From Candidatus Peregrinibacteria bacterium (lineage in GTDB: Bacteria > Patescibacteriota > Gracilibacteria > CAIRYL01), in the NCBI GenBank assembly GCA_016220175.1, contig JACRHZ010000075.1:1-63373 (forward strand): 63,373 bases of DNA, written 5' to 3'. The notes beneath the pieces were generated by a model that was not told the DNA's origin, made no database searches, and saw only the letters and a list, made by a program, of their open reading frames with translations. The translations under genes were made by a program, and so were the position numbers. This document shows, piece after piece, positions 28,963 to 32,734 of this stretch. Within the stretch, counting starts at the first letter, position 1. Every line of letters begins with the position of its first letter.

Positions 28963-29000
28963 TTCTTTTCCCAAAGAGTCACCCGTCCTTGGATGACTTC
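28963..29000 (+). repeat. 38-bp direct repeat, copy 1 (contains the GTCACCC...GGATGAC hairpin)
   Basis: ttcttttcccaaagagtcacccgtccttggatgacttc. About 90% identical to 30898-30935. Confidence 0.7.
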
Positions 29001-29035
29001 CTCGGAAGCTTGTGCAAGGGATTTCAATCTCGCCC

Positions 29036-29106
29036 TGGTGGAGAGGACGGGAATCGAACCCGCAAAATTAGGTCTCAACCCCAATTCGTACACCAGTACC
29101 CTCCCC
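29036..29106 (-). tRNA. atypical tRNA-like gene (71 nt with encoded CCA, UGA anticodon-like loop, truncated D-arm, no variable arm)
   Basis: Canonical T-arm (GCGGG-TTCGATT-CCCGT). 7-bp acceptor GGGGAGG/CCTCTCC followed by A-CCA. 7-nt loop GTTGAGA on a 5-7-bp stem. The D-arm is only GTAC-TGGT-GTAC. A 10-nt leader (GCCCTGGTGG) pairs with CCACCAGGGC at the 3' end. Confidence 0.4.
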
Positions 29107-29420
29107 ATAGCCACCAGGGCATGGTTGATAATACTTCCATGCAATGAGATACAAAAACGACCACTTCTTGCGAAATAGTCGTTTTTGCTGAGACCTAATT
29201 TATGCAGGCAGATGCCTGTGTACGAATTTGGGCATCACTATAATACAAAATTGAGTTCAAAAATTCAAGAGAAAATCATAGTTTTTACTTTGGGATCACA
29301 TCAAAAATTTGGGGAGAAAATAATCAAGCATATATTTTAGAGAGACGGAAAAGGAAGAATTTTTTATCAGTAACACCACGAACAAGCGCACGGAAGCCTT
29401 TGATTTTTCCACAGCGAAAA

Positions 29421-29445
29421 TGTGTCGACGAGGTCCGACGACACA
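29421..29445. repeat. TGTCGACG-type hairpin, copy 3
   Basis: tgtgtcgacgaggtccgacgacaca. Confidence 0.6.
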
Positions 29446-29479
29446 ATCGACATTTCTCTATGAAAAAAACCCAATCGTC

Positions 29480-29518
29480 GGTTCAACTCTTTTGAGTTGA
29501 ACCCTTCGTTTCTTTTTT
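29480..29518 (+). terminator. rho-independent terminator-like hairpin inside the IS110 5' arm
   Basis: GGTTCAACTC-tttt-GAGTTGAACC (10-bp perfect stem) followed by cttcgtttctttttt. Confidence 0.5.
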
Positions 29519-29536
29519 ACCATTAACTTACTTTTT

Positions 29537-29767
29537 TGATGAAAAGGAAACGTTGTGGAGCAACTCAAAAGAGTTGCTGGTATATTCAAAGTACTAAGAG
29601 ATATGTAAGAATCAAGGGAAAGGGAGTTGCGGAGAGTTACTTGAGAACAAATGTCTCGTGAGGGAGCATGCAATCCCTACTGTTTGTAACGAATGAGAAG
29701 GTTGTGGATTTCGCCACGTATCACTCACCAGCTTGTTAGGCAGTAGGACTCCCTTCCCTTTTCATCA
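29537..29767 (+). ncRNA. candidate IS110 bridge RNA
   Basis: An 11-bp long-range stem (29537-29547 with 29757-29767) closes a ~230-nt region with internal hairpins (agcaactc-aaaa-gagttgct). It sits directly upstream of the transposase ATG. It contains GAGGGAGC, complementary to the element 3' end GCTCCCTC. Confidence 0.4.
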
Positions 29768-29784
29768 TTTTACCCAATTTTTTT

Positions 29785-30738
29785 ATGAAATGCATCGGCA
29801 TTGATGTTTCCTCCAAGAAACTCAACATCTATAGGAATGATACTAAAGAGAGTTTTGAGATTGAAAACACACAAAATGCTTTAGAAAAATTTGAGAAGCA
29901 AAAGAAATTAGAATCTGATGAATATGTGATAGGGGTCGAATCAACTGGTCGATATCATTTTGTGTGTCAGGAGTACTTTGTTATGAAGGGATACGAATTT
30001 CGTTGTTTGAATCCACTTCTCACGAACAAAGTAATATTTGCGACTGTGCGAAAGAAAAAAACGGACAAATCAGATGCGGAAGTAATTGCATTTTTATTGA
30101 ATTTAGGAGAAGGACAAAAGGTAACAAAAGAACAACTGCGAACCACAAAGAGGACAATTCTCCGCACCAGAAAAAAATTGGTACATCAAAAGACAGTTTT
30201 GAAATTATTACTTCAGGAACTAGGAAAAGAGCATCAAAACAAGGGCATTACGGAAACAAAAGCTTCTCTTCAAAGAGTTCTCATAACGATCGAAGATGAA
30301 ATAAAAGTATTGGAGAAAGAGGCAATGGGAGTTTCTGAAACGAAGGCAGAAAAACTCATTCGATCAATTCCTGGATTTGCTACGCAACTCGCAGGAGTGG
30401 TCGCGACAGAAGTTGGAGATTTTACGAGGTTTTCTGCTGCAACGCAGTTTAAGGCGTATGTCGGGATTGATCCGAAAGTATCTCAGTCAGGGGCAACTCA
30501 TTACACCGGAAAAATAACAAAGAGGGGAAATCCGTATCTTCGATGCGCATTCTATCTTGCCGCACAAGTCGCGAGACAACATGATCCGGAACTGAAAGCT
30601 TTTTACGAGAAAAAAATAGGGGAAGGAAAAAACTTCAGAGTGGCAATTTGTGCAGTTGCGAGAAAGCTCTGTGAAAGAGTTTACGCCGTAGTAATGAGAG
30701 GTGTTCCTTACCAAATACGAGAACTCTCTTTCTCTTGA
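29785..30738 (+). CDS. IS110-family transposase (DEDD RuvC-like N-domain plus Ser C-domain)
   Basis: IGIDVS, GVESTGRYH, KTDKSDAEVIA, IPGFATQLAGVVATEVGDFTRF, and GIDPKVSQSG...KRGNPYLR. Confidence 0.92.
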   Translation: MKCIGIDVSSKKLNIYRNDTKESFEIENTQNALEKFEKQKKLESDEYVIGVESTGRYHFVCQEYFVMKGYEFRCLNPLLTNKVIFATVRKKKTDKSDAEVIAFLLNLGEGQKVTKEQLRTTKRTILRTRKKLVHQKTVLKLLLQELGKEHQNKGITETKASLQRVLITIEDEIKVLEKEAMGVSETKAEKLIRSIPGFATQLAGVVATEVGDFTRFSAATQFKAYVGIDPKVSQSGATHYTGKITKRGNPYLRCAFYLAAQVARQHDPELKAFYEKKIGEGKNFRVAICAVARKLCERVYAVVMRGVPYQIRELSFS

Positions 30739-30897
30739 TTTTGATATAGAAGGCTCCCTCGGAAAACGTTTCAGAGCAATCGAGACGATTGCTCCAGCAC
30801 AAGATTTTTCTATTTTGATATTCGGTCTAAATCTTCTTCGATAATTTTTATCAATGCCGGGGTATCGTCAACCAATGTGGCAGTATCGGAGCTTGAA

Positions 30898-30935
30898 TTC
30901 TTTCCCCAAAGAGTCACCCGTCCTCGGGTGACCTC
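30898..30935 (+). repeat. 38-bp direct repeat, copy 2
   Basis: ttctttccccaaagagtcacccgtcctcgggtgacctc. Followed by the GC hairpin GAGTCGCCCC-agga-GGGGCGACTC (30936-30959). Confidence 0.7.
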
Positions 30936-30969
30936 GAGTCGCCCCAGGAGGGGCGACTCTTAGGAAAAC

Positions 30970-31038: not shown

Positions 31039-31139
31039 GGACCAAAACTCAGGAAAGGTCATGCGTGGATGCATGCCCCCCACGAAATATTACTAATAAA
31101 TTTTTCTTAAAAAAAGCCAGAAGAATTAACATAAAATTC

Positions 31140-31467
31140 TAGCACTCAGAATAAAGAAGTGCTAATATCACCGAGTCCTTCTCTGCTAAGATGAAGGAGC
31201 CGATGGTGAGAAAATGGCGACATGAAGAATATAAGCCATAATCACCAAAGGGCGCCACCGACGCGCGTCGGTGGTCGGAACCTTATAAGGGTACGACGTA
31301 AGTCGTGGTCAGATAGGGGATCCAAACTCGGGAAAGAGTTCCGAGCGGGAGAAATCCCAACCAATCGGAATCTTAGCCACGCAAGTGGCTGAGGATTCCA
31401 AAAGAACTCAGAACCGAGAGAGTCAGGCTCTTAAAAAAAGAGCTTGACTCACCGAGTCCTTTTTTTG
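31140..31467 (+). ncRNA. structured non-coding region upstream of the RT (candidate RT-associated ncRNA)
   Basis: No ORF. Visibly GC-richer than other spacers. Stems at 31140-31164, 31205-31246, 31255-31274, 31367-31399 (GCAA loop) and 31420-31450 (13 bp). Small hairpin GACTC-acc-GAGTC plus a T7 run at the 3' end. Bracketed by a 13-nt direct repeat. Confidence 0.45.
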
Positions 31468-31483
31468 TTATCTCTTTAATCAC

Positions 31484-32734
31484 ATGCCAATATCTCTCCA
31501 AAACTTGAGCAAAATAAGGTCACTCGAAACGGCTTGGGGGTTAGTAAAAAGTAGAAAATCTATTGAAAGTCGGAAGAACTCACGAGGAATTGATAAGGTC
31601 AGTTTAGAAGATTTCGAAAAAAATTTATCAGAAAACCTTAACTTAATCAGCAATAAATTAAGAAATAACTCTTATGAACCAGATTCAGTTAAAATAGTTC
31701 CACAAAAAAAAGAAAATGGTAAATATCGATTCATAGCTGTACCTACAATAAGAGATAGAATAGTACAAAGAGCAATGTTGGAGTTATTTATGCCATATAT
31801 AAAAAATATTATACAAACTGGGGTGAGTTATTGTGGTGTGAAAAATGATGAAAATGAAGCTATGTGTACTAAAAAAGCTGTTAAAAAAATTATAGATCAC
31901 ATTAAAAATGGTCTCTTTTGGTTTTTTAAGTCAGATATAGAGGGCTTTTTTGATAATATACCTAAGAAATCGATTCTTAAAAAAATTCAAAATAAAATTC
32001 CATTAAGCGAAGAGGTTTTTAAGCTGACAAAAAAATACATTCATTATCAAGTTGGCAACCCTGAGGTATTCCAAAAACACAGGCTAAAAATACCTGACGA
32101 TATATTAGGAATAACACAAGGATCGGCTCTTTCACCAGTCTTTGCTAATTTATATTTAGCCGATTTTGACAGAAAAGTAAAAAAAGTTTTTGGAGACAGA
32201 TTTATTAGATATGTGGATGACTTTGTCGTTATATGTAAAGATCAAAAAGAGGCAAAAGAAGCATTGAATTTTTTAAAAGATGAGATAAAAAAAATAGACC
32301 TCAGTTTGCCAAACGAAAACAAGAAAGATTCAAAAACAAGGACTGGAAACCTGCGAGCTTCAAATAAAATTGATTTTTTAGGCTTAGCCATTGATCGTAA
32401 TAGGATTTGTCCAAAAGGCGGAATTAAAGAGTTGAGATTTAAAATACAAAATAAGTTGAAACTAAAAAAGAAAAATGGGGAAGAATATAAATCTGTAAAA
32501 CGCAATGGAAAAGAATATAGTGTTCGTGAGCAAATCGAAGAAAAAATCATGGGATGGGCAAAGCATTACAGTTTCTACCATGTAAAAGAACTATATGAGT
32601 CTTTAGATATCTTCATAAGAGAAAGAGCGAAAAACACAAAACTTTTGAAAGGAATGATTGGATTAGGAACAATAAAATTGTCACCTATCATCTCTGAAGG
32701 CGATTGGCAAAAAATGTTCTCAACAAAACATTAG
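31484..32734 (+). CDS. reverse transcriptase, group-II-intron-like, free-standing (no En domain, no intron RNA domains)
   Basis: RT0-7 motifs: GIDKVSLEDF, RFIAVPTIRDRIVQRA, SDIEGFFDNI, QGSALSPVFANLYL, YVDDF and IDFLGL. Thumb-like MGWAKHYSFY. Confidence 0.9.
   Translation: MPISLQNLSKIRSLETAWGLVKSRKSIESRKNSRGIDKVSLEDFEKNLSENLNLISNKLRNNSYEPDSVKIVPQKKENGKYRFIAVPTIRDRIVQRAMLELFMPYIKNIIQTGVSYCGVKNDENEAMCTKKAVKKIIDHIKNGLFWFFKSDIEGFFDNIPKKSILKKIQNKIPLSEEVFKLTKKYIHYQVGNPEVFQKHRLKIPDDILGITQGSALSPVFANLYLADFDRKVKKVFGDRFIRYVDDFVVICKDQKEAKEALNFLKDEIKKIDLSLPNENKKDSKTRTGNLRASNKIDFLGLAIDRNRICPKGGIKELRFKIQNKLKLKKKNGEEYKSVKRNGKEYSVREQIEEKIMGWAKHYSFYHVKELYESLDIFIRERAKNTKLLKGMIGLGTIKLSPIISEGDWQKMFSTKH

Follow-up and report, generated by a model that had tools for sequence, protein, structure and literature searches.

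Known bridge RNA systems and the present locus

Insertion sequences of the IS1111 type have subterminal inverted repeats and encode their RNA, known as seekRNA or bridge RNA, downstream of the gene, in the right end. The system closest to the locus described here belongs to the IS110 group and is IS621 of E. coli, which encodes a bridge RNA of 177 nt (Durrant et al. 2024, PMC11208160; Hiraizumi et al. 2024, PMC11208158; PDB 8WT6). The left guides of IS621 base-pair with the bottom strand and its right guides with the top one, the core being included in all four (PMC11208160), and the roles of the catalytic residues D11, E60, D102, D105 and S241 have been established (PMC11208158). The circular form of IS110 elements follows a known expression logic, in which a promoter is assembled at the junction (PMC11208160).

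The window, meaning the whole stretch of 63,373 nt that was analysed, contains an element that is best compared with this system. The best explanation, which is given a probability of about 0.88, is that positions 29579-30753 constitute an intact IS110-group insertion sequence, that a bridge RNA of ~150 nt is encoded in its left end and forms two stem-loops with internal loops, the target-binding one preceding the donor-binding one, and that it was inserted in the 3' arm of an intergenic hairpin, between two CT cores. The element ends, the fold and covariation of the RNA, the complementarity and covariation of the guides, and the conserved catalytic residues were all observed, at this locus and among its homologs.

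Host genome and comparative material

The host genome comprises 1.49 Mb in 79 contigs, with 39.5% GC and 96% completeness, and its relatives range from 0.6 to 2.0 Mb. Recoding of TGA was considered, since a genome of the same class shows in-frame TGAs, and was dropped: TGA terminates 209 of the 732 long ORFs, as expected of the standard code. Homologs with 54-61% protein identity were gathered, together with their flanks, from genome and metagenome contigs; the scan of the genome collection yielded only two close relatives, so that metagenome contigs were the source of most comparative data. The nearest named carriers of homologous elements are Candidatus Falkowbacteria, Moraniibacteriota and Saccharibacteria, so that the host is most likely a groundwater bacterium of the Patescibacteria (CPR). 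The locus is present in one groundwater DNA run, probably from the source sample and deposited as assembled contigs, among which neither a circle junction nor an empty site was found; no RNA run was listed as containing it.

The recombinase

29785-30738, + strand: IS110 recombinase gene, 317 aa (PF01548, PF02371, NF033542; catalytic residues aligned to IS621)

An IS110-family transposase with DEDD and Ser motifs had been recognized here in an earlier reading of the sequence (the original prediction), and this identification is borne out. The N-terminal RuvC-like DEDD domain matches PF01548 (E 1.8e-18) and the C-terminal Tnp domain matches PF02371 (E 1.9e-25), while the whole-protein model NCBIfam NF033542, 'IS110 family RNA-guided transposase', scores 183.8 bits against a cutoff of 140. 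The best solved relative of the protein is IS621 (8WT6; E 2.4e-23, 86 bits), to whose catalytic D11, E60, D102, D105 and S241 the residues D7, E52, D94, D97 and S235 align, the serine lying in a QSG motif opposite ESG in IS621. D7, E52, D94 and D97 are invariant across 31 homologs.

Element ends, cores and target hairpin

29579-30753, + strand: IS110-family insertion sequence (limits of homolog conservation; breakpoints of identical copies in differing flanks)
29577-29578, + strand: left core dinucleotide CT, the end of the left target (CT on both sides of the element)
30754-30755, + strand: right core dinucleotide CT (CT on both sides of the element)
29547-29578, + strand: left target half, consisting of the outer arm GAAACGTT and then GGAGCAACTC-AAAA-GAGTTGCT (fold of the joined empty site)
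30756-30773, + strand: right target half, in which CC finishes the inner stem and AACGTTTC is the outer arm (fold of the joined empty site)

The original prediction had given the element an extent of 29233-30768, with an upstream arm of ~550 nt. Conservation between the window and the homologs first appears at GGTATATT (29579) and is last seen at GATATAGAAGG (30753), the tip ending in GAAGG. Two homologous elements are also available as identical copies in four and two differing left flanks, respectively, and in both the identity stops exactly at the core plus GGTATATT and at GAAGG plus the core. Together, these limits place the element at 29579-30753 plus the CT cores, which amounts to 1175 bp excluding the cores, with a left end of only 206 nt and a right end reaching 15 nt past the stop codon; the sequence at 29233-29578 belongs to other repeats. 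The core on both sides is CT in the window, in L189 and in L215-217, and TT in the remaining homologs. Because a G precedes the core in donor and target alike, a repeat of 3 nt rather than 2 is possible. Terminal inverted repeats are absent: neither of the two ends, GGTATATT... and ...ATAGAAGG, is an inverted repeat of the other.

When 29579-30755 is deleted in silico, a perfect 10-bp hairpin, GGAGCAACTC-AAAA-GAGTTGCTCC, is restored, surrounded by an outer 8-bp helix of GAAACGTT with AACGTTTC; the restored empty site folds at -25.0 kcal/mol (z -4.7). The likeness of GGAAACGTT to GGAAAACGTT, previously taken as a guide match, is explained by this palindrome, both strings lying in the flanks as the outer arms of the pre-insertion hairpin.

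Fold and covariation of the predicted bridge RNA

29613-29746, + strand: bridge RNA core (covariance-model match; the transcript probably starts near 29593)
29621-29678, + strand: target-binding stem-loop, outer stem 29621-31/29669-78, inner stem-loop 29643-57 (RNAalifold)
29687-29738, + strand: donor-binding stem-loop, outer stem 29687-91/29734-38, inner stem-loop 29703-18 (RNAalifold)

The proposal that the non-coding 5' end encodes a bridge RNA is upheld by the modelled fold, its covariation and the guide matches. The predicted RNA is ~150 nt long, spans about 29593-29746 and is encoded by the 206-nt left end. From an alignment of 14 left ends, RNAalifold derived a consensus of two stem-loops, each with a large internal loop, and a covariance model, R1, was built from the same ends. 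In the target stem-loop, helices 1 and 2 are 93-96% paired, with compensatory changes in 13 of 15 pairs; in the donor stem-loop, helices 3-5 are 95-98% paired, with such changes in 9 of 12. Over 23 distinct sequences, 95.2% of cells are paired and double changes occur in 22 of 27 pairs, compared with 32-52% of cells and 4-10 double-change pairs in slid controls, although the covariation alignment was fitted to the model and these figures are biased towards the structure.

Model R1 reaches 132 bits at 29613-29746, on a par with its training members, and this is its sole match in the host genome. It also has nine matches outside the training set, all of them immediately in front of homologous transposase genes that are more distant, and a search with the RNA alone across 150 other genomes of the phylum returned one further match, again with an IS110 gene downstream of it. 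The single-sequence fold of 29593-29784 is unexceptional (z -1.5), its minimum-energy structure differing in part from the consensus. No bridge RNA match was found in Rfam 15, either at the gathering score or at E up to 10, the presence of a bridge RNA family in Rfam being itself uncertain; the matches that Rfam 15 does give are microRNA-like ones to the flanking palindromes and a sub-threshold tmRNA at 29036-29106.

A shared ATCACT had also been proposed as a guide match to the region starting at 29234. This match is due to chance: its partner at 29234-44 is the -10 region of the minus-strand promoter of the neighbouring repeat unit. The motif ATCAC is invariant in the donor loop across all homologs.

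Guide sequences and their co-variation with flanks and ends

29633-29641, + strand: left target guide AGAGTTACT, in the same sense as the left flank AGAGTTGCT (29570-78), 8/9
29660-29667, + strand: right target guide GAGGGAGC, exact complement of GCTCCCTC at 30753-60, 8/8
29695-29703, + strand: left donor guide GAGAAGGTT, matching the right-end tip TAGAAGG plus CT at 7/9, or 8 with one U-G wobble
29727-29732, + strand: right donor guide ACCAGC, complement of GCTGGT at 29576-81, 6/6

All sequence strings quoted in the original prediction were found where it had placed them, and one of its matches, that of GAGGGAGC to the element's 3' end, for which chance had been considered, is the genuine right target guide: the complementarity is exact and, given the homologs, far beyond chance. 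Cognate right target guides pair at 8/8 in 5 guide classes, matching quite different sequences, while non-cognate combinations mostly score 2-6, with a maximum of 7 where related guide sets have a target type in common. In the left target guide, the sole mismatch is the G next to the core, and non-cognate flanks score 3-6. The left donor guide co-varies with the right-end tip among homologs (AAGG, ATGG, TTAG); it has TT where the core is CT, and at the core C its U pairs with the bottom-strand G by wobble. The right donor guide co-varies with the core plus the left-end start, as ACCAAC with GTTGGT and ACGAAC with GTTCGT, for elements starting with GGT and CGT. Further, in a 9 x 9 test of guides against flanks over nine guide classes, only 1 of 362,880 permutations, the identity in which every guide meets its cognate flank, reaches the observed total, with or without the core positions.

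The orientation of the guides in the window corresponds exactly to the scheme of IS621 (PMC11208160). The base after the core complement, a C in both right guides, faces an invariant G at position 7 of target and donor, so by analogy this last C may be the handshake-type position described for IS621 (PMC11208158). Element ends placed elsewhere by other copies had been named in the original prediction as a ground for rejecting it. The left end does lie elsewhere, and the guide logic nevertheless holds with the corrected ends; it is in fact stronger, because all four guides can now be assigned.

Two homologous elements deserve separate mention. P0032 (L215-L217) is located within short-repeat arrays bearing GCTCAGGGA(A/C)C, which match its own right target guide (~1682-1760, downstream of the insertion sequence), and it seems to target a tandem repeat family. 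The copy from Falkowbacteria, L029 (2265-2300, 3486-3500), has a 5-nt insertion between the left-end GG and the -10 box, and its flanks match its own guides poorly, at 4/9 and 5/8; it may be a decayed or off-target insertion.

Putative junction promoter and proposed mechanism

29581-29586, + strand: -10 box TATATT at the left-end tip, putative half of a junction promoter (GGTATAT(T/C) kept in 12/13 aligned homologs that have the left-end start)
30735-30740, + strand: right-end sequence TTGATT, a putative -35 box that overlaps the stop codon (most homologs: TTGAC(T/A/G))

The -35 box is degenerate in a few homologs, such as L189. In a circle containing one core, the spacing between the -35 and -10 boxes is 13+2+2 = 17 nt; once the element is integrated, the sequence at the -35 position is GAGCAA, which matches poorly. 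By analogy with IS110 circles, the two boxes would act as a promoter in the circular form.

The mechanism proposed for the element follows the same analogy. Excision would yield a circle in which the right-end TTGATT is brought 17 nt from the left-end TATATT, and the resulting junction promoter would drive the bridge RNA and probably also the 317-aa DEDD/Ser recombinase. The first loop would set the target, with GAGGGAGC pairing with the top strand of G-CT-CCCTC, and the second loop would set the donor, with GAGAAGGTT corresponding to the right-end tip and ACCAGC to the core plus the left-end start. Strand exchange at the core would follow, catalysed by the recombinase as has been shown for IS621. 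Transcription, RNA-protein binding and recombination are thus all attributed to this element on the model of its described relatives.

Copy number and mobility in the host genome

30967-31038, + strand: solo 3'-end remnant, the last ~60 nt of the IS110 element, ending GAAGG-CT-CTCTC (90% identical to 30693-30764)

One full copy and one 72-nt solo 3' end are present in the genome. The solo end, which is decayed, lies 213 nt downstream of the intact copy, and its flank, CT-CTCTC, resembles the right target and would form 7/8 pairs plus one G-T wobble with the right target guide. No other perfect target site was found in the host genome, and sites with one mismatch number 4-6, near chance by a rough estimate. 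A genome of the same family also carries a solo 3' end (L022, G001:C6, 441-547), in which 29 nt identical to the window's right end are followed by CT-CCGGC. Since solo right ends occur in both the host genome and this same-family genome, the IS110 lineage has been present for some time.

These counts bear on the best surviving alternative, namely that the locus is a bridge-RNA-type insertion sequence stranded in a copy no longer mobile in this host genome. Such a state would account for there being only one full copy and one bridge RNA in a genome that is 96% complete, for the lack of another perfect target, for the one mismatch in the left target guide, and for the decayed solo right ends nearby and in the same-family genome. 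Against it, the ORF of the element is intact with all catalytic residues, its bridge RNA scores at 132 bits like the training members, and both promoter halves and both cores are intact. A stranded copy is accordingly regarded as improbable, and the reading as an intact bridge RNA element is retained.

Could the left end be only a 5' leader?

A second alternative takes the left-end structure as nothing but a cis-regulatory 5' leader of the transposase mRNA, acting on translation or stability and having no guide role. The structure does lie directly upstream of the ATG, and some pairings would suit a leader. A segment of the 3' tail, 29749-60, can pair alternatively with 29614-26, and a closing helix, sought between the 12 nt that precede the target loop and the 45 nt that follow the donor loop and weakly formed in the window by 29613-20 with 29754-60, is suggestive in about half of the members, although absent in L210, L029 and L199. 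A leader alone, however, leaves unexplained why, from one element to the next, the loop nucleotides change exactly as the flanks and ends do. In architecture and guide orientation, moreover, the structure agrees with the IS621 bridge RNA. With loop 1 matching the target, loop 2 the donor, and the guides changing with flanks and ends, a pure leader role is therefore very unlikely, and the bridge RNA remains the preferred interpretation of the left end.

The mosaic to the left of the element

29030-29275, - strand: repeat unit of ~245 nt in five copies (other copies at G000 C7:19677-19920, C70:148-392, C59:1307-1550 and C6:11597-11685)
29291-29407, - strand: C-terminal remnant (…KIKGFRALVRGVTDK…) of a second, multi-copy transposase, weakly ISL3-like (PF01610, E 0.014)
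29413-29457: short hairpin repeat (GTGTCGACGAGGTCCGACGACAC…), with six further copies in the genome (three in C43 and one each in C7, C56 and C68)

The sequence at 29030-29578 consists of repeats that recur elsewhere in the genome without an IS110 gene, and the part once counted as the element's upstream arm, 29233-29578, is a mosaic of unrelated repeats outside it. At 29480-29578 stand two related hairpins, the second of which is the IS110 target; the first, at 29480-29503 with a T-run, is the terminator-like hairpin of the original prediction, a real structure but one that lies outside the element. A scan of 4.5 kb for inverted repeats of 14 nt returned nine (I17-I25), the proposed long-range helix (5' arm 29537-50) among them. 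That helix and the hairpin exist in the sequence, but an element of 29233-30768 whose ~230-nt RNA follows an internal terminator and is closed by 29537-47/29757-67 can hardly be sustained, as the 5' arm lies outside the element among repeats found elsewhere without an IS110 gene, and the homologs share nothing to the left of GGTATATT and have no counterpart of the helix.

The five-copy unit carries a sigma-70-like promoter of its own and a 5' piece that ends in a hairpin plus T-run, followed by a 71-nt tRNA-like domain. This domain shows a canonical T-arm, an acceptor stem with G3:U70 and an encoded CCA; two of its segments are complementary to two segments of the 5' piece, with which they co-vary between copies. 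The tRNA-like domain scores 32 bits against the Rfam tmRNA model, under the gathering score, and ARAGORN found 42 tRNAs and no tmRNA in the whole genome.

The ISL3-like remnant is also found at two contig ends, C27:1-143 and C30:1-133, and is continued by a 1427-nt contig of the source run; the intact element caused a break in the assembly and is missing from the genome bins. Insertion of the IS110 element into this gene (29291-29407) was considered and rejected, as 170 nt separate the end of the remnant from the left end of the IS110 element and no convincing continuation was seen in the right flank.

On the right, a repeat of ~60-75 nt at 30893-30968, with two GC-rich hairpins in it, occurs on at least 7 other contigs, and a partial copy of it at 28963-29000 produces a 38-45-nt direct repeat that brackets the whole mosaic. 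Farther downstream, 31484-32734 (+ strand) encodes a group-II-intron-like reverse transcriptase (RVT_1, E 1.2e-24; weak GIIM), preceded by non-coding sequence at 31040-31480.

Significance

The annotation of the locus is corrected by these results: the element measures 1.18 kb, not 1.5 kb, and the 350 nt at its left are other repeats. In a host lineage of tiny genomes with scarce mobile elements, a natural bridge RNA now has all four guides, both cores, a putative junction promoter and the target hairpin assigned. About nine natural guide/target sets, together with a natural switch of the core from TT to CT, could help to define how compact bridge recombinases are to be reprogrammed. As the mechanism, described in 2024, had already been established for IS621, the result is a confirmation and no surprise.

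More speculatively, the homologs may represent a Patescibacteria-centred clade of minimal bridge systems, with a 317-aa recombinase and a ~150-nt RNA that has no 5' stem-loop. Natural switching between TT and CT cores, in which three guides change and the UU of the left donor guide serves both cores by U-G wobble, could then be a route of core re-coding, and the 3'-tail pairing (29749-60/29614-26) might couple RNA folding to transposase expression. This wider proposal is tentative and is considered rather doubtful as it stands.

Comparison with known systems

The element resembles IS621 in combining a DEDD RuvC-like domain with a Tnp domain that carries the catalytic Ser, in encoding its predicted RNA in the left end as two internal-loop stem-loops with the target loop before the donor loop, in the arrangement of a right-end -35 and a left-end -10 as a junction promoter, here judged by sequence, and in its structured, hairpin-type target. 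In contrast to these likenesses, the two proteins are only distant relatives (86 bits), and in the family of the present element no 5' stem-loop is conserved before the target loop. An uninterrupted 8 nt make up the right target guide here, compared with four bases in IS621; the core is TT in most members of the family and CT in the sub-branch of the window, and the left donor guide stays UU even with a CT core. The element is also slightly smaller, at 1.18 kb with a protein of 317 aa compared with 326 aa, and its host has a genome of the Patescibacteria type.

With the IS1111 group, the element shares the recombinase family and the RNA-guided logic, but its RNA is encoded upstream of the gene and only 15 nt follow the stop codon, which sets it outside the IS1111 subgroup. 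Its closest counterparts are the homologous IS110 elements of Candidatus Falkowbacteria, Moraniibacteriota and metagenomes (L029, L030, L109-L111, L189-L217), which have 54-61% protein identity and the same predicted bridge RNA fold, and which share with it the right-end tip GATATAGAAGG, the left-end start GGTATATT and the guide positions. From these it differs in the guide sequences and hence in the targets; most of them have a TT core, but L189 and L215-217 have CT like the window.

IS110 proteins of Patescibacteria and of Candidatus Andersenbacteria were already included in the supplement of Durrant et al. (PMC11208160). The locus is a well-supported natural bridge RNA element, which by analogy would act in the manner of IS621, and an ordinary example of a known mechanism in a host group that the published survey already covers.
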